64,000 nucleotides of DNA from Patescibacteria group bacterium (GCA_028716665.1 JAQUPP010000002.1:203717-267716), one strand, 5' to 3'; positions 17,685 through 24,400 are shown, counted from the stretch's first letter. Translations and numbers: made by a program. Notes: generated by a model from the sequence alone, not told the origin.

Positions 17685-19082
17685 ATGAAAAAAGTCTTTT
17701 CATTTTTGGCGATAGCTGCAATTCTTTGCAGCTCGATGGCTTATGGTACCTGGCCAATGTTCCAAAGAAATGCAAAACACGATGGAAGTGGACCAGCCGG
17801 ACCGGAGACAAATAATGTCAGTTGGTCTTTAAATTTAGGGACCACCTGCGGATTATTTTCTTCACCGATCAGTGATTCGTTTAATGGTGATGAAAGAATA
17901 TTTCTCGGCACCCAAAAGGGTGTGTATGAAATAAGTTCTCAGGGAGGTCTGATTCAAAAAATAGATACCGGTTATGGAACAGAAGTGTCAGTGGCTGTCC
18001 ATGATAGTACGATTTTCTTTTGCTCTAAAGATTCTTTGATTAAAAAGAATCTGACAGACAGCACAAAGAATTGGTCATATTATTTGGGAGCCAACCCTTC
18101 GGCACCAACTATTTTCGGCGGAAATATTTATGTTTACGCCAATAATAAACTCTGGTGTTTTGTTGATACCGGACTTAGCTGGGTGACCGTAACTTTAGAC
18201 AAAGGAAATGATAAAAGCGTTTCACCGGCAGTTGATGACAGTGGTAACATTTATGTTGCTACTCTCTCAAATCCGGCCGCTTATTATGATTTTCTTTTAT
18301 ATGTCTATAATCCAAACGGAACAATGAAATGGGGATATACAGCCTTAACAGGTGAACCAACGGGTGTTCATGGAACACCAACAATTGGTCCTCATGGTGA
18401 AGTTCTAGTTTGGACTTATCCAACACAGAGTTGGCCTTCAAGTCTGTACTGCATAAATGAATCAGGGAGACTTTGGCAAAAATCATCGCCGAAAATTCGT
18501 TATTCAAGTGTAGGAATATTTGGAGACACGATTATTTATTGCGGAGATAACGGAATTACGGCTTGTCTTTTGTCTGATGGTAGCACTGTTTGGAACTATG
18601 CTTTAGCAGGTCCGATCACAATTTCTTCCCCAGCCATTGGTGCTGATGGAACAATTTACGTCGGCAATGATGCAGGCAAAGTTTTGGCAGTTTCCAAAAA
18701 TGGAACTTTGTTATGGGAATATGACACCAAACAAGGACCTCTTGGAAGCCCGTCTATCGGTCCCAATAAGACGCTCCGCATCAATTCTTTAAGCGGCATA
18801 TTGTATGTTTTTAAACAAGCAGTAGGGGTCGCAGAAAAAGAAAAAATTGAAAAAATGGTAACAGTGTCTCCGACCGTTTCAGCCACTAACTTTGAAATTC
18901 AAGCTCCGGAAAGAGCTATAAAGAAAGTGTATGATATAGCCGGTAAACTGGTTAAAACCATAGGGAGCTCAAGTTGGGATGGGACAAACGAATTAAACAA
19001 GAAGTTATCGAACGGAATGTACTTTATTAACGTAAGCGTAGGTGGAGCTACGGTTACGAAGAAGATAATATTGATGAGATGA
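17685..19082 (+). CDS. Secreted PQQ-like beta-propeller protein with a C-terminal T9SS-type/FlgD-Ig-like sorting domain
   Basis: Signal peptide 'MKKVFSFLAIAAILCSSMA' and repeated 'G.iY.g..dg.l.a' propeller blades. The C-terminus 'VYDIAGKLVKTIGSSSWDGTNELNKKLSNGMYFINVSVGG.TVTKKIILMR' matches the secretion C-terminal sorting-domain pattern. Confidence 0.7.
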   Translation: MKKVFSFLAIAAILCSSMAYGTWPMFQRNAKHDGSGPAGPETNNVSWSLNLGTTCGLFSSPISDSFNGDERIFLGTQKGVYEISSQGGLIQKIDTGYGTEVSVAVHDSTIFFCSKDSLIKKNLTDSTKNWSYYLGANPSAPTIFGGNIYVYANNKLWCFVDTGLSWVTVTLDKGNDKSVSPAVDDSGNIYVATLSNPAAYYDFLLYVYNPNGTMKWGYTALTGEPTGVHGTPTIGPHGEVLVWTYPTQSWPSSLYCINESGRLWQKSSPKIRYSSVGIFGDTIIYCGDNGITACLLSDGSTVWNYALAGPITISSPAIGADGTIYVGNDAGKVLAVSKNGTLLWEYDTKQGPLGSPSIGPNKTLRINSLSGILYVFKQAVGVAEKEKIEKMVTVSPTVSATNFEIQAPERAIKKVYDIAGKLVKTIGSSSWDGTNELNKKLSNGMYFINVSVGGATVTKKIILMR

Positions 19083-19095
19083 TCTTATCAATCAC

Positions 19096-19130
19096 AAGGC
19101 AGGTGTAAAATTACACCTGCCTTTTTTATT
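19096..19130 (+). terminator. Rho-independent terminator
   Basis: Hairpin AGGCAGGTGTAA-aat-TACACCTGCCT followed by TTTTTT. Confidence 0.75.
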
Positions 19131-19410: not shown

Positions 19411-19583
19411 AAATGTTAATTTTTGTTTTATCCCCAAAAAGGGGGCTTGACAAATTCTCATTTTTATGATATATTATATAAATAAATAAAAGGACAGACC
19501 TATAACATAGATTTAAAGCTCTTTATAGCAATAATGTAAAATCAAGAAAATATAATTTATTTCGCATAATTAATTTATTTTAA

Positions 19584-22500
19584 ATGTTTATCATTATGAA
19601 AAATATGAAAAAGTTAAGTTTATTTCTCACAGTCTGTTTAGCAAGTTTTATTATCTTAGGCAATTCTCCATTGCCTGCTTTTGCATTAACTGAATTTAAC
19701 ACAGTGTATGTTTCTACAAACGTAGAAATAGGGGGTACTGTTTATCCTTATTTGGCAACTGTTTATGCCAGTGATGCAAGTTCTGTTAAAGTAATCGTGG
19801 AAGATCCAAGAGGAACTCAGTTTGAAAATGATTTATCTATGCATCAGGGAACAACATGGTTTGGTCCGATATCAATTTCACCTAATAATGAAGGAGGACT
19901 TTGGAAAGTGGCAAGAGTTGATATTGTAGATAATGGAGGCGCGTCTACTTCTTATTCCGAACAAACCGATCCGGGTATTTTTGCCATGTCCGGCACAACT
20001 TTTAATGTTTATAATTCACCCAAATATATTGATTCTTTTACTTTTGAAGGATTAAATCCAGCGGTTGCCGGTGTTATTAATGAAGAAACTCATAAAATTA
20101 CCGCAACTGTACCTTCTGGCACGGATTTACTTACACTTGCGCCAACCGTCGTTTTTCACGGATCATCTATTAGTCCGATAAGCGGTACTGCTCAAGATTT
20201 TACCGATTCAGTTGCTAACCCGGTAATTTATACTGTGACTGCGGAAGATAATGCAACCAAGGATTATGAAGTCACTGTTAATGTGGCGGCTAGTACTGAT
20301 AAAGCGATTACTTCTTTTACTATTCCAGGTCAGGTAGGCGATACAACTATAAATGAAGCTGATGAAAATAATTATACTATTAATTTAAATATGCCTCATG
20401 GCACGAAGGTAACTGCTCTCACCCCAACCGTTATTATTAAGGGTAATGAAGTTGAACCAAAATCGGGCATAACTCAAAATTTTGCTAATCCACGAGTTAA
20501 ATATACAGTTACATCTGCGGTTGATTCCGGTGATACTCAAGATTATTTCGTTACCGTAAATGTTCTTAATAGAATTGATGATACACTACCATATCTTAAT
20601 AATGACCAGAACAACCCTGATGGCGTGACAATTAATCCATCAATTATACATATAGGAAATTCTGTCACCGCAACTGTCAAAGCTCATGATGTGGGATCGG
20701 GTGTTGAATTTGCTAAAGTAACTATTGCCAGTCCGTCAGGAAATCAAACAGTTGAGTGCACCACTCAAGACTCAGAATTCTCTTGTGATTTATTAATTCC
20801 ATTAAATGGCGAGCTTGGAATTTGGGAAGTAAAAAAACTTGATATTAAAGATTACGCGGGAAATATTGCGCATTTTAATTATCCAGAAGGTAATCCTTCC
20901 AAACTTCCTACATTCACTGTCACCAGTTCAGCCAAAGATATTACTTCTTTCAGTTTCCCGGAAGGCGTAGGTGCTATTACCGGAACTGATATTGCCGTGA
21001 CTGTCCCATTTGGAACACTTCCTTTACTTACTCCGACAATTACGGTTTCCGAAGGAGCAACAGTCAGTCCTTGGAGTGGAATACTTCAAGATTTTACCGA
21101 CCCGGTAACTTATACTGTTACTGCGGCCGATTCTTCCACAAAAGTTTATACTGTGACTGTAACTGTCGCAGCCAATCCAACCAAATCAATTACATCTTTT
21201 AATTTTAATGAATTAAATCCGGATGTTATTGGTGTTATTAATGAAAATAACCACACTGTCGCTTTAACTGTTCCTTTTGGAACAGACGTGACAATGTTGA
21301 CACCAACCATTGCTATTACCGGATCATTTATTAATCCATTGAGCGGCATACCTCAAGATTTTACCAATCCGGTAACCTATACTGTCACTGCCACGGATAT
21401 GACAACTCAAGATTATACTGTCACTGTTGCTGTGGCTCCTAGCCCGGCGAAAGCGATTACTGCTTTCAGTTTTGTGGCTCCGGAAGCCAATGGCGTTATC
21501 AACGAAGCCAATCACACTATTGCCGTTACTGTTCCTTTTGGAACTAACGTGACAATGTTGACACCAACCATTACTATTACCGGACAATCAGTTTGGCCGA
21601 TAAGCGGCACTGCTCAAGATTTTTCAATTCCGGTTGATTATACTGTTACTGCGGCTGATATGACAATTCAAACTTATACTGTTACGGTTGTTGTCGCCGC
21701 CACCAGTTCTGAAAAAGAAATTACATCTTTCATTTTTAATGAATTAACTCCGGCAGCTGTTGGTGTTATTAACGGTGATGTTATCACAGTAATTGTTCCG
21801 TTTGGAACCAATGTGACAATGTTGACTCCAACCATTGCGCATACCGGATTATTTGTTAATCCATTCAGCGGTATAGCTCGTGATTTTACAACTCCGCAAA
21901 CTTATACTGTCACGGCCGCGGATTTTTCACAAAGAGTTTATACTGTGAATGTTACTGTGGCTCTTAATCCGGCCAAAGCAATTACTGCTTTTACAATTCC
22001 TAACCAAGTAGGTACTACAACTATCAATGAAGCTACTCATAATATTCATTTGACTATGCCGTTTGGCGCAGACGTGACAATGCTTGTGCCGACCATCGTG
22101 CATACCGGATTATTTGTTAATCCATTAAGTGATACTGCTCAAGATTTCACCAGCCCGGTAACTTATACTGTTACTGCTGCTGATTCTTCTACTCAAGCTT
22201 ACACGGTAACTGTTGCCGCAGCCACCAGTTCAGCTAAAGCAATTACTTCATTTATTATTTCTGATCAAGCAGCGGCTATTAACGAAACCGATCACACGAT
22301 CACTTTAACCATGTCTTATGGCACGGTTGTGACCGCGCTCGTTCCGACTATCACGGTTTCTGCCGGAGCAACGGTTAATCCCGCTTCTGGCGTAGCTCAA
22401 AATTTTTCCAGCCCGGTAACTTATACTGTTACTGCTGCTGATAATTCCACTCAAACCTATACTGTTACCATAACTGTTAGAGGCGGCGGTGGAGGCGGAG

Positions 22501-22961
22501 GCGGCGGTGGAAGTTCTTATACTTACAGCTCTGCCAAGGCAATCACAGCTTTCAGTTTTGATGGATTAAAACCAATCGTAGGCACTATTAATGAAACAAA
22601 TTATACAGTTCTTTTGGTTGCTCCTTATGGCACAGACGTAACTCATTTAGTGCCGACTATCACGGTTTCTGATAAAGCAAAAATTTCTCCAGTTTCAGGT
22701 GTTGCTCAAAATTTCACCAATCCTGTTGTTTACACAGTCACTGCCGAGAGCGGCGCAATGCAAACTTATACTGTGACCGTAGCCTTTACTCAAAATATTA
22801 AAACAGGTGATATTAACAAGGATGGAAAAGTTGATAAATATGACTTCTCAATATTGATGGCAAATTGGGGACAGACAGGTTTAAACATTTGCGATGTCAA
22901 TACTGACAGCAAAGTCGATAAATATGATTTCTCATTATTAATGTTAAATTGGTCTCTATAA
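19584..22961 (+). CDS. Giant secreted surface protein with about ten roughly 88-aa Ig-like repeats, a poly-Gly tract and a C-terminal type-I dockerin
   Basis: Signal peptide. Repeat unit 'AKAITSFxF..LNPAV.GVINE..HTI.VTVPFGT.VT.LTPTI...G..V.P.SG.AQDFT.PVTYTVTAAD.STQ.YTVTV'. Poly-Gly tract 'GGGGGGGGGG'. Dockerin segments 'DINKDGKVDKYDFSIL' and 'DVNTDSKVDKYDFSLL'. Confidence 0.8.
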   Translation: MFIIMKNMKKLSLFLTVCLASFIILGNSPLPAFALTEFNTVYVSTNVEIGGTVYPYLATVYASDASSVKVIVEDPRGTQFENDLSMHQGTTWFGPISISPNNEGGLWKVARVDIVDNGGASTSYSEQTDPGIFAMSGTTFNVYNSPKYIDSFTFEGLNPAVAGVINEETHKITATVPSGTDLLTLAPTVVFHGSSISPISGTAQDFTDSVANPVIYTVTAEDNATKDYEVTVNVAASTDKAITSFTIPGQVGDTTINEADENNYTINLNMPHGTKVTALTPTVIIKGNEVEPKSGITQNFANPRVKYTVTSAVDSGDTQDYFVTVNVLNRIDDTLPYLNNDQNNPDGVTINPSIIHIGNSVTATVKAHDVGSGVEFAKVTIASPSGNQTVECTTQDSEFSCDLLIPLNGELGIWEVKKLDIKDYAGNIAHFNYPEGNPSKLPTFTVTSSAKDITSFSFPEGVGAITGTDIAVTVPFGTLPLLTPTITVSEGATVSPWSGILQDFTDPVTYTVTAADSSTKVYTVTVTVAANPTKSITSFNFNELNPDVIGVINENNHTVALTVPFGTDVTMLTPTIAITGSFINPLSGIPQDFTNPVTYTVTATDMTTQDYTVTVAVAPSPAKAITAFSFVAPEANGVINEANHTIAVTVPFGTNVTMLTPTITITGQSVWPISGTAQDFSIPVDYTVTAADMTIQTYTVTVVVAATSSEKEITSFIFNELTPAAVGVINGDVITVIVPFGTNVTMLTPTIAHTGLFVNPFSGIARDFTTPQTYTVTAADFSQRVYTVNVTVALNPAKAITAFTIPNQVGTTTINEATHNIHLTMPFGADVTMLVPTIVHTGLFVNPLSDTAQDFTSPVTYTVTAADSSTQAYTVTVAAATSSAKAITSFIISDQAAAINETDHTITLTMSYGTVVTALVPTITVSAGATVNPASGVAQNFSSPVTYTVTAADNSTQTYTVTITVRGGGGGGGGGGSSYTYSSAKAITAFSFDGLKPIVGTINETNYTVLLVAPYGTDVTHLVPTITVSDKAKISPVSGVAQNFTNPVVYTVTAESGAMQTYTVTVAFTQNIKTGDINKDGKVDKYDFSILMANWGQTGLNICDVNTDSKVDKYDFSLLMLNWSL

Positions 22962-22983
22962 GAATAAATAAATAATTATAAAT

Positions 22984-24264
22984 ATGAAAAATATGAAAAA
23001 TATAAAAATGAAAATTGTATTATTGACAACTGTCCTCTTATTGTCGGTTGCCGGTTTTATCGGAACAGCAGATGCTGCCAGTACTTTCTTGTACGTCTCT
23101 CCGACAAACGTCAGCAAAACTGCCGGAAGCGTATTTAACGCAACCGTAGGACTTAATAATGCCGGTGATAAGGTTTGCACCATTGAAGGTACTTTGGTTT
23201 TTAACAATTTAACTTGTCAGGGCATAACTCTTTCAAGTGGTTTGCAAGCGTTATCTTCTCCAAGTTGTTCAAGTCCTTATTTCTTAATCGGTATACCGAG
23301 TTGTACAGTGTCGGATAGAACATTAATGACTGTATCTGTTAAAGCGGAAAATGCCAAACCGTCTTCAATCAGTTTCAAAGGTGTTGATATTATCGGTGAA
23401 GGAACTTCAGTTTCTAATACTTCCGTAGCCGGAAATTATAATGTCGCTCCTGTTGTCAAACCGACTCCTGTTGCTCCGGCTCCTGTCGTGAAAGAAACTC
23501 CTAAAACAACTCCGAAAACTACAACTCCTTCAACAAAAAAAGAAACCACGCCTGCTCCTGTTGTAAATTCAGCCAAAGCTATTACTTCGTTTGACTTTGC
23601 AGCTTATGCGGTCGTAGGTGCTATTAATGAAGATACAAAAACAATCGTGGCCACCTTGCCCTATGGCACTGATGTCACCGCGCTTGTTCCAATGATTACT
23701 ACAACCGGAAAATCAGTCAGCCCGGCTTCTGGCGCGGCTCAGGATTTCTCTGATCCGATCGCTTACACAGTCACGGCTGAAGATAAATCCACTCAAACTT
23801 ATACTGTTGCCATAACCGTTGCCGCTAATCCGGCTAAAGCAATCACTGATTTCAGCTTTAAAGGTTTAGGCGCGGGTGTTATCAATGAAACAAATCATGT
23901 CATTACCGTAACCGTTCCTTTTGGAACCAAGGTTAACGCTCTTACTCCGACCATCGTTATTAACGGAGTGGCGGTCAGCCCGGCTTCCGGAATGACGCAA
24001 GATTTCACTCATTCAGTTATTTACACTGTTACCGCTGCCGACGATACAACTCAAGCTTATACTGTTACCGCAACTGTTGCTGCTAAAAAAGTTGCGAAAT
24101 CAAGTTTGTTGGGTTCAATGGCAAATGTATTATCTCTCGGAACCGGTAAAGTGTGGTTAGGTGTAATAGTGACTTTGATCATACTCGGTGTTATTGGCTA
24201 CTTCATTCTTAAAGGAAAAAAGAAAGTTAAGAAAGAAGTAAAACAAGAACCGTTGATAAAATAA
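22984..24264 (+). CDS. Membrane-anchored cohesin-like scaffold protein: signal peptide, cohesin-like beta-sandwich, Thr/Pro linker, two Ig-like repeats shared with the 19584 protein, C-terminal TM anchor
   Basis: N-terminal domain of about 130 aa with a cohesin-like pattern. Linker 'PTPVAPAPVVKETPKTTPKTTTPSTKKETTPAPV'. Repeats 'AKAITSFDF...YTVAITV' and 'AKAITDFSF...YTVTATV'. C-terminus 'VWLGVIVTLIILGVIGYFILKGKKKVKK'. Confidence 0.65.
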   Translation: MKNMKNIKMKIVLLTTVLLLSVAGFIGTADAASTFLYVSPTNVSKTAGSVFNATVGLNNAGDKVCTIEGTLVFNNLTCQGITLSSGLQALSSPSCSSPYFLIGIPSCTVSDRTLMTVSVKAENAKPSSISFKGVDIIGEGTSVSNTSVAGNYNVAPVVKPTPVAPAPVVKETPKTTPKTTTPSTKKETTPAPVVNSAKAITSFDFAAYAVVGAINEDTKTIVATLPYGTDVTALVPMITTTGKSVSPASGAAQDFSDPIAYTVTAEDKSTQTYTVAITVAANPAKAITDFSFKGLGAGVINETNHVITVTVPFGTKVNALTPTIVINGVAVSPASGMTQDFTHSVIYTVTAADDTTQAYTVTATVAAKKVAKSSLLGSMANVLSLGTGKVWLGVIVTLIILGVIGYFILKGKKKVKKEVKQEPLIK

Positions 24265-24287
24265 TTAAGTTTTAATTGAACCTCGGA

Positions 24288-24322
24288 AAGGCGGATGAGA
24301 TTTTCATCCGCCTTTCATTTTG
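24288..24322 (+). terminator. Rho-independent terminator
   Basis: Hairpin AAAGGCGGATGAG-atttt-CATCCGCCTTT followed by a T-rich tail. Confidence 0.7.
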
Positions 24323-24400
24323 TTAAAAATATTTGACAAATTTTTAAAAATTTGCTAATCTATTAAATCAAGCATTGCAATTATATAATTTAAATTTTTT

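Follow-up and report, generated by a model that had tools for sequence, protein, structure and literature searches.

A probable non-cellulosomal cohesin-dockerin cassette for surface display in Patescibacteria

Two adjacent genes in a 64,000-nucleotide (nt) stretch of the genome of a Patescibacteria group bacterium (GCA_028716665.1, JAQUPP010000002.1:203717-267716) are most plausibly read, with a probability of about 0.78, as a non-cellulosomal cohesin-dockerin surface-display cassette of the Patescibacteria, or Candidate Phyla Radiation (CPR), arranged as a two-gene operon. The window denotes this whole stretch of DNA, and positions are counted from its first letter. The upstream open reading frame (ORF), ORF1 (19584-22961, + strand), encodes a secreted protein of 1125 amino acids (aa) that ends in a dockerin and is referred to as the cargo. 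After an intergenic gap of 22 nt, ORF2 (22984-24264, + strand) encodes a 426-aa protein, the anchor, whose N-terminal domain has a predicted cohesin fold. Both ORFs lie where an earlier inspection of the DNA by itself (the sequence-only reading) had placed them. The case for the cassette is built on domain identities, predicted folds, an operon-like layout, a pairing of the two kinds of gene that is invariant across genomes, and a gradient of conservation along the locus.

The invariance of the pairing, whatever the cargo, is the main evidence that the ORF1 and ORF2 proteins interact. Loci were gathered through the cohesin family from assemblies, GTDB species genomes and metagenomes, and the two domains were counted with hidden Markov models (HMMs). 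A dockerin gene is located directly upstream, on the same strand, of 41/41 distinct cohesin-family domains having upstream sequence, and the gap from the dockerin gene to the cohesin gene ranges from -13 to +31 nt. The cargo bodies are unrelated among loci and include SQHop_cyclase_C domains, Fn3_assoc/CHB_HEX_C domains, S8 peptidases and DUF5018 fibers, in proteins that range in size from 113-260 aa (among them small proteins of 189 aa) to giants of 1,350-1,970 aa. The only conserved part of the upstream gene is the dockerin, which is made of two segments and closes with a near-constant tail, KYDF(A/S)LLM(L/S)(N/K)W(S/G)x. In the opposite direction, a cohesin follows 42 of the 43 distinct dockerins, a figure that is biased since most loci were found via the cohesin; the search was therefore reversed to start from proteins selected on the dockerin alone (P0129 and the S8 peptidases P0137 and P0150), and a cohesin-anchor gene came next in 3/3 (E 1e-56 to 1e-69). 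The idea, already present in the sequence-only reading, that the anchor docks the cargo is strongly backed by these two counts of adjacency, 41/41 and 3/3, from which we infer a physical bond between cohesin and dockerin.

Some of these genomes hold more than a single pair. The Staskawiczbacteria metagenome-assembled genome JBAZYR01 contains two complete cassettes (L015 and L016) with differing dockerin subtypes, and at locus L013 a second dockerin-ended protein (1995-2160; 241 aa) has no cohesin gene of its own. These loci hint at shared anchors or orthogonal specificities.

Pfam and HMMs made from the copies within the window served to map the layout of ORF1. The parts of both genes, with R1 to R9 denoting the DUF5018 repeats of the cargo and X1 and X2 its two X domains, are as follows.

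19584..22961, + strand: ORF1, the cargo, a 1125-aa secreted fiber with the order signal peptide (SP)-X-R2-X-R6-Gly10-R1-dockerin
19584..19685, + strand: ORF1 signal peptide, aa 1-34, with a basic n-region, a hydrophobic core and an AFA motif, as read from the sequence
19686..20021, + strand: X1, the N-terminal domain, aa 35-146, related to X2, with no Pfam match above cut-off
20022..20567, + strand: DUF5018 repeats R1-R2, aa 147-328, from Pfam and the own-copy HMMs
20568..20933, + strand: X2, aa 329-450, the second X copy
20934..22481, + strand: DUF5018 repeats R3-R8, aa 451-966, the tandem core
22482..22511, + strand: Gly10 hinge, aa 967-976, with mixed GGC/GGT/GGA codons
22536..22793, + strand: DUF5018 repeat R9, aa 985-1070, next to the dockerin
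22800..22958, + strand: dockerin, aa 1073-1125, from Pfam, with Ca-binding loops at nt 22809-22844 and 22893-22928
22984..24264, + strand: ORF2, the anchor, a 426-aa membrane-anchored protein with a single predicted cohesin
22984..23076, + strand: ORF2 signal peptide, aa 1-31, ending in ADA, as read from the sequence and conserved in the family alignment
23077..23463, + strand: cohesin-like beta-sandwich, aa 32-160, from AlphaFold2 (AF2) and Foldseek
23464..23574, + strand: Pro/Thr/Lys/Val-rich linker, aa 161-197, present with variable length in all family members
23575..24090, + strand: two DUF5018 repeats, aa 198-369, a spacer that most family members do not have
24151..24261, + strand: transmembrane (TM) helix VWLGVIVTLIILGVIGYFIL (aa 390-409) and Lys-rich tail KGKKKVKKEVKQEPLIK, an architecture conserved across the family

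The C-terminus of ORF1 is a dockerin. Its score against the Pfam family Dockerin_1 (PF00404, type I-like) is 34.6 bits over aa 1075-1120, above the cut-off of 22.9, and its matches among PDB sequences are dockerins, the best being that of Clostridium perfringens NagH (2jnk/2ozn, E 3e-5). The two segments, DINKDGKVDKYDFSIL (loop at nt 22809-22844) and DVNTDSKVDKYDFSLL (loop at nt 22893-22928), are identical at 15 of 22 positions and are spaced by 28 residues. Within them, the Ca-binding loops DINKDGKVDKYD and DVNTDSKVDKYD have acidic or amide residues at positions 1, 3, 5, 9 and 12 (the D1/N3/D5/D9/D12 pattern), with K-Y at loop positions 10-11 in both. For the last 60 aa, AF2 gives a model with the two expected helices and a moderate predicted local distance difference test (pLDDT) score of 77.8, the alignment being a shallow one of 7 sequences. 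When this model is searched against the PDB with Foldseek, the top 22 matches are all dockerin chains, with a template-modeling score (TM-score) of 0.76 and root-mean-square deviations of 1.0-1.4 Å (2y3n_B, 2ozn_B); the short length of the domain (60 aa) keeps the E-values weak (0.03). A dockerin had been proposed here by the sequence-only reading, with loop geometry as the point on which it might fail; both loops proved canonical, and the Pfam score and the close overlay on solved dockerins agree. The symmetry of the two segments suggests a dual binding mode, by analogy with dockerins that bind in two orientations such as 2vn5, and the binding of the cohesin would probably depend on Ca2+.

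The N-terminal domain of ORF2 is predicted to have a cohesin fold, though one that sequence profiles miss. Modeled by AF2 with the family alignment, the domain is all-beta with a pLDDT of 92.9, and the model fits the cohesin fold, a nine-stranded flattened beta-sandwich (jelly-roll). In Foldseek against the PDB, every one of the top 16 matches is a cohesin, and cohesins make up 20 of the 21 matches with E ≤ 1e-3. A non-cellulosomal cohesin of Archaeoglobus fulgidus (2xdh, E 1.2e-8) leads the list, and the TM-score reaches 0.70 (5n5p). OlpA (3ul4) and OlpC (4dh2), anchors with one cohesin each, also appear in it. The cohesin-like fold that had been supposed from sequence is upheld by these models, and the order supposed for ORF2, consisting of signal peptide, beta-sandwich, linker, two repeats, TM helix and KGKKKVKK tail, is there in full. 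Anchoring of either protein through an S-layer homology (SLH) domain or a sortase was also considered and was rejected, as no such domain came up at E ≤ 1.

The relatives of ORF2 are small proteins of 225-260 aa without Pfam domains, encoded by Staskawiczbacteria, Woesebacteria, Gribaldobacteria and other Patescibacteria. They share one architecture, in which a signal peptide is followed by the domain, a Pro/Thr linker, a TM helix and a Lys-rich tail. The ORF2 product itself has no exact entry among recorded proteins. In an exhaustive profile search, with clusters counted at 50% identity, 191 representatives matched at E ≤ 1e-30 and 723 at E ≤ 1e-3; almost all are 220-290 aa long with a single domain. 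Longer anchors are rare. One of them, P0164 (423 aa, two DUF5018 repeats), matches ORF2 in length and architecture, and other long anchors have a Bact_surface_Ig-like spacer (P0267) or Fn3 (P0188).

Additional traits were seen within this anchor family. Four near-invariant Cys residues in the cohesin-like domain (aa 32-160 of ORF2) across the family alignment A1 suggest two disulfides, which are not known to be typical of classical cohesins. In about half of the family, an (L/F)GTG motif stands directly before the TM helix; examples include many anchors in A1 and those of L013, L019, L023, L025, L057 and L058, and the copy in ORF2 is LSLGTGKVW (aa 384-392, nt 24133-24159). It is placed in the manner of C-terminal sorting or processing signals, which combine a motif, a TM helix and a basic tail; no sorting-signal model of NCBIfam or Pfam matched. 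A few family members are located on contigs binned as Pacearchaeota, Firestonebacteria, Bacteroidota and Halanaerobiales (P0021; L012, L019 and L029). These contigs are short, and mis-binning is the likely explanation, with horizontal transfer as a further possibility.

Orthologous loci reveal which parts of the cassette are kept and which vary. Three loci syntenic with the window were compared, namely L030 (GTDB 'Patescibacteria group bacterium STD1_195'), L034 (partial) and L035. Identity to the window is 98% for the flanking ABC-F protein, 86-94% for the anchor (417-427 aa) and 94% for the signal peptide of the cargo. Within the remainder of the cargo, the last repeat together with the dockerin (C-terminal 141 aa) is 83-86% identical and the last repeat R9 by itself 84-87%, followed by R8 at 71-77%, the internal repeats at 56-70% (without one-to-one orthology) and the X domains at 42-43%. 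The anchors of all four loci, window included, have exactly two DUF5018 repeats. Among the cargos, the number of these repeats is 9, 12 or 14: the window has X-R2-X-R6-G10-R1-Doc (1125 aa; G, Gly tract; Doc, dockerin), L030 has X-R11-G8-R1-Doc (1271 aa) and L035 has X-R13-G11-R1-Doc (1444 aa), the latter two with a single X domain. At the same position, the Gly tract has 10 residues in the window, 8 in L030, 8 in L034 and 11 in L035.

The two X domains of the window are about 115 aa each and 32% identical to one another (E 1e-6), and they interrupt the DUF5018 array. They had escaped the sequence-only reading, which put the repeats of ORF1 at roughly ten where nine are counted. A word-indexed search found no homologs of the X domain, and loose Pfam scans returned only noise-level matches (CBM_48, Caudo_bapla_N and Bac_rhamnosid_C). 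Among 157 fetched proteins, the domain is present in the two orthologs only.

A mechanism that would unite these parts may be outlined. ORF2 would be exported, and its C-terminal TM helix would keep it in the membrane and leave the Lys-rich tail in the cytoplasm, while the Pro/Thr linker and the two immunoglobulin (Ig)-like DUF5018 modules would lift its single cohesin outward through the envelope. ORF1 would be secreted, and its C-terminal Ca-binding dockerin would plug non-covalently into the cohesin of ORF2. The outcome would be a surface fiber of about 11 beta-sandwich modules. In such a fiber, R9 and the dockerin may form the conserved base, and the poly-Gly hinge would part this base from the variable stalk and give it free movement. 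The DUF5018 stalk would then project the fast-evolving X domains, which probably bind ligands, at or near the outer end. An adhesive, host-contact or partner-recognition role for the tip of the cargo may be envisaged.

The Gly tract is not peculiar to ORF1, and the most fitting reading of it is a flexible hinge that is conserved but differs in length. A Gly run of 3-19 residues is present in 35/42 distinct dockerin proteins of the family. In some it is no more than about 17 aa away from the dockerin; in others, such as ORF1 and the cargos of L003 and L021, one beta-sandwich module of 80-100 aa stands between the two. In L003 (8221-9996) and also in L021, a 591-aa cargo has Gly17-19 and, between this tract and the dockerin, an Fn3-like module of about 95 aa. 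This layout of hinge, one beta-sandwich and dockerin is that of the window, but the module is unrelated to DUF5018.

The DUF5018 repeat is a generic stalk or spacer that stands outside the cohesin-dockerin machinery, and that both genes contain it is peculiar to the window's lineage. ORF1 has nine copies and ORF2 two, each of 82-93 aa, and the match to Pfam DUF5018 (PF16410 / PF22243) has E = 1e-63, with 215.7 bits for ORF1 and 63.5 bits for ORF2 against a cut-off of 38.2. From repeat to repeat, identity is 43-65% in protein and 53-77% in DNA; the repeats themselves had been recognized before, with the DNA range set too narrowly at 60-70%. Secreted proteins with long tandem arrays of DUF5018 are found throughout Myxococcota, Bacillota, Bacteroidota, Chloroflexota, Spirochaetota and CPR, making it a known and widespread module. 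Their partner modules are SLH (PF00395) or type IX secretion system (T9SS) tails (PF18962) in other phyla and dockerin (PF00404) in CPR orthologs. The SLH and T9SS tails sit where the CPR proteins carry the dockerin, which fits the dockerin as a cell-attachment module. The literature examined establishes no function for DUF5018. The sequence-only reading named as a possible refutation that the repeat might be a common adhesin domain unrelated to cohesins and dockerins; formally DUF5018 is such a generic module, but this has no bearing on the pairing of cohesin and dockerin.

It is conceivable that the pairing is real and that the fiber serves as a glycan-capture or nutrient-scavenging appendage, or as a structural part of the envelope resembling an S-layer, and not as a host adhesin; this alternative is somewhat unlikely. 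The closest solved relatives of the repeat are Ig-like domains of Bacteroides surface proteins, namely 8a9y/8aa0/8aa2 (DUF4960), 3hbz and 3s30, of which 3hbz and 3s30 carry the label 'putative glycoside hydrolases' and the 8a9y series presumably belongs to the levan utilisome of B. thetaiotaomicron. Other cargos of the cassette are S8 peptidases or terpene-cyclase-like domains, and a levan-binding screen recovered DUF4960/DUF5018 proteins (PMC10076258). However, Pfam finds no glycoside hydrolase or carbohydrate-binding module (CBM) above cut-off in ORF1 or ORF2, and no carbohydrate-binding or catalytic domain was detected in ORF1. In addition, the divergence of the distal domains (42-43% identity versus 98% for the flank) would be more typical of recognition surfaces exposed to a partner, a phage or an immune system than of proteins that bind glycans.

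Less probable still, and best regarded as doubtful, is a contingency locus in which slippage of Gly10 or recombination between repeats would switch or resize the fiber within a population. The differences in Gly length and repeat number among the orthologs agree with it, as does the presence in L035 and L034 of repeat pairs that are 87% identical, which suggests recent duplication. The length variation that the sequence-only reading foresaw does hold between lineages, but it is seen between lineages only. Moreover, exact identity between repeats of the window is at most about 15 nt, a poor substrate for homologous recombination. The Gly tract is real, although it spans 22482-22511 where about 22478-22510 had been given, and its codons (in order GGC GGC GGT GGA GGC GGA GGC GGC GGT GGA) include GGT in addition to the GGC and GGA first listed. 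It lies in frame and internal to the ORF, Tandem Repeats Finder (TRF) reports 78% matches only, and its longest internal direct repeat is 14 nt, such that a change in the tract would resize the fiber and not switch it off. A simple-sequence contingency locus is marked by a perfect homopolymer or short-unit repeat that, on slipping, moves the frame or the promoter spacing, and the tract is not of this kind. With such short exact identities and mixed Gly codons, rapid slippage or recombination is not indicated for the window allele.

Apart from the cohesin-first sampling already described, several results weigh against the cassette as interpreted here. On the isolated domain of ORF2, the Pfam Cohesin model (PF00963) scores 15.2 bits against a cut-off of 24.1 and covers 40 residues; full-length ORF2 has no Pfam Cohesin match, and only 2/37 relatives give any Cohesin signal. 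No cohesin was found among PDB sequences, by phmmer or with the family profile. The signal at the level of sequence is sub-threshold and the cohesin assignment therefore rests on predicted structure, where Foldseek also returns, at lower ranks, sandwiches that are not cohesins (CLIPPER 9ifr, YcnI and BslA). Co-variation over 29 cohesin-dockerin pairs gave a top normalized mutual information of 0.83 versus a mean shuffled maximum of 0.76 ± 0.06, a value matched by 42/300 shuffles and, at the level of columns, not above shuffled pairings. The Mantel correlation (r = 0.33, reached by 97/5000 permutations) is modest and confounded by shared ancestry. SEML1_0315, the essential dockerin protein of Southlakia epibionticum, is neighbored by a hydrolase and a tRNA and by no anchor, so not all CPR dockerins use the cassette. 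Lastly, ORF1 has no recognizable binding or catalytic domain, so the term 'adhesin' is a guess.

The least probable alternative is that ORF1 and ORF2 are co-expressed surface proteins that do not bind one another, the EF-hand pair binding Ca2+ for stability, a cell-wall polymer or a cohesin encoded elsewhere and the ORF2 sandwich being some other Ig-like or adhesin module; the Pfam score below cut-off, the non-cohesin sandwiches further down the Foldseek list and the absence of column-level co-variation fit this, but it is made very improbable by the adjacency in 41/41 loci whatever the cargo, with the dockerin as the sole conserved part upstream, by the 3/3 of the dockerin-first check, by top 16 structural matches that are all cohesins, and by the joint conservation of the anchor and the last repeat plus dockerin while the remaining cargo diverges. 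The surface-display cassette is the reading retained below.

Three signals that the sequence-only reading did not mention surround the two genes.

19096-19123: a second strong terminator hairpin, which closes the gene upstream of ORF1
19447..19475, + strand: promoter-like site TTGACA-17-TATATT with an extended -10 TG, 109 nt 5' of the ORF1 ATG
24286..24316, + strand: intrinsic-terminator-like hairpin, a 14-bp stem then a T-run, 22 nt past the ORF2 stop

On consensus match alone, the site at 19447..19475 is the best of the region on the + strand, with 11/12 matches. Together with the 22-nt gap and the hairpins at 19096 and 24286, it makes ORF1 and ORF2 look like a separate two-gene operon, as judged from these sequence signals. 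A six-frame scan of the whole 64-kb window found no cohesin, dockerin, DUF5018 or X module outside the two ORFs. An RNA element at the locus was ruled out, Rfam and tRNA searches giving no match, and minus-strand ORFs of 67-87 aa within both genes were rejected since they lie inside strongly supported coding sequence of the + strand.

Some observations concern the surroundings of the cassette. The whole window has no tRNA gene and no Rfam family at gathering thresholds, and its GC content of 27-42% peaks (39-42%) over the two repeat genes. The N-termini of ORF1 and ORF2 are alike, with MKNMK(K/N) in both, and a tandem 9-nt ATGAAAAAT unit at the 5' ends of both genes (19593-19631 and 22972-23028; TRF, direct-repeat families D11/D12) gives each several in-frame ATG starts. 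The upstream gene (17685-19082, + strand) encodes a secreted PQQ-like beta-propeller protein whose C-terminus passes the cut-offs for Por_Secre_tail/T9SS (Pfam 29.4 vs 27; TIGR04183 35.7 vs 23). Such a tail is odd here, as an outer membrane and a T9SS are not expected in Patescibacteria. Compared with the syntenic proteins of L030 and L035, the propeller protein shows an identity of only 42-44%, versus 98% for the nearby ABC-F protein, and is a second hypervariable surface protein adjoining the cassette. On the other side, between the anchor and the ABC-F gene, lie two small ORFs in L030 (7304-7969) and a 711-aa ORF in L035 (11836-13971). The window (24265-24400) is without these extra ORFs, and this segment beside the cassette is prone to insertions and deletions.

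Little is known of how the episymbionts among CPR/Patescibacteria build their surfaces and make contact with partner cells, and annotation is lacking for most of their surface proteins. In the literature examined, which is not proof for the literature at large, there is no description of the cassette. The one relevant mention (PMC10633639) concerns an essential dockerin-domain protein of a cultivated Saccharibacterium and names no cohesin partner for it; the other papers that name cohesin or dockerin together with CPR deal with counts of carbohydrate-active enzymes (CAZymes) or with giant proteins of Omnitrophota. Tentatively, the window may offer one instance of a modular display system that spans the Patescibacteria and escapes standard annotation, with at least 191 clusters of TM-anchored single-cohesin sockets (E ≤ 1e-30) and up to 723 (E ≤ 1e-3). 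Each socket would have, encoded in cis, a dockerin-tipped cargo that can be swapped, such as fibers, S8 proteases or terpene-cyclase-like domains. Within that system, the poly-Gly hinge would decouple cargo from plug, and the outer domains would be hypervariable and would determine which partner or host is recognized, or how phages are evaded. If so, the cassette would be a main way for episymbionts that have a wall but few sortases to decorate their surface. With a tip that diverges so extremely beside a flanking gene at 98%, these domains are candidates for partner specificity or for evasion of phages or predators. For annotation, hundreds of 'hypothetical' membrane proteins of 240 aa could be named as anchors and their upstream neighbors as surface cargo. 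The cassette is also small and modular, with presumed interacting modules of about 130 and 55 aa that lend themselves to expression and to tests in vitro, and designers of display systems might employ the cohesin-dockerin pairs as orthogonal parts.

Several known systems invite comparison. A cellulosome combines several cohesins per scaffoldin with dockerin-bearing CAZymes and a CBM, whereas the anchor here has one cohesin and the locus has no CAZyme and no CBM; a true cellulosome is rejected on these grounds, and the term 'cellulosome-like' that was first applied overstated the likeness. OlpA and OlpC of Clostridium thermocellum (3ul4, 4dh2) are closer in plan, for in them, as in ORF2, one cohesin on a cell-bound protein takes dockerin proteins directly at the surface. 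They are attached to the cell wall by SLH modules and dock cellulosomal enzymes, while ORF2 has a C-terminal TM helix and Lys tail with no match to SLH (PF00395), a cohesin that Pfam misses, a partner in the adjacent gene and a non-enzymatic repeat fiber as cargo. The NagH/NagJ proteins of C. perfringens (2ozn, 2jnk) supply the best sequence and structure match of the ORF1 dockerin, that of NagH, just as the A. fulgidus cohesin (2xdh) is the best structure match of the ORF2 cohesin, and both stand outside plant cell-wall degradation. Either they assemble secreted glycosidases or their partners are unknown, and they are not cassettes of a cargo-dockerin gene followed by a TM-cohesin gene. Cohesins of NagH/NagJ and A. 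fulgidus are recognized by standard cohesin profiles. Type II X-module-dockerin dyads (2b59, 5k39) resemble the base of the fiber in that an Ig-like module directly precedes the dockerin and the two are conserved together. Unlike their X module, R9 is an ordinary DUF5018 repeat, and most family members have no such module between the Gly hinge and the dockerin. DUF5018 surface proteins of Bacteroidota, Bacillota, Chloroflexota and other groups share with the window long tandem arrays on secreted proteins; in those groups the proteins are attached through lipidation, through T9SS C-terminal domains (PF18962) or through SLH (PF00395), and the CPR versions (P0039, P0040) have a dockerin instead. 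The cassette thus differs from known systems in its TM anchor in place of SLH, its cohesin that fails Pfam, its strict pairing in cis and its occurrence mainly in Patescibacteria.

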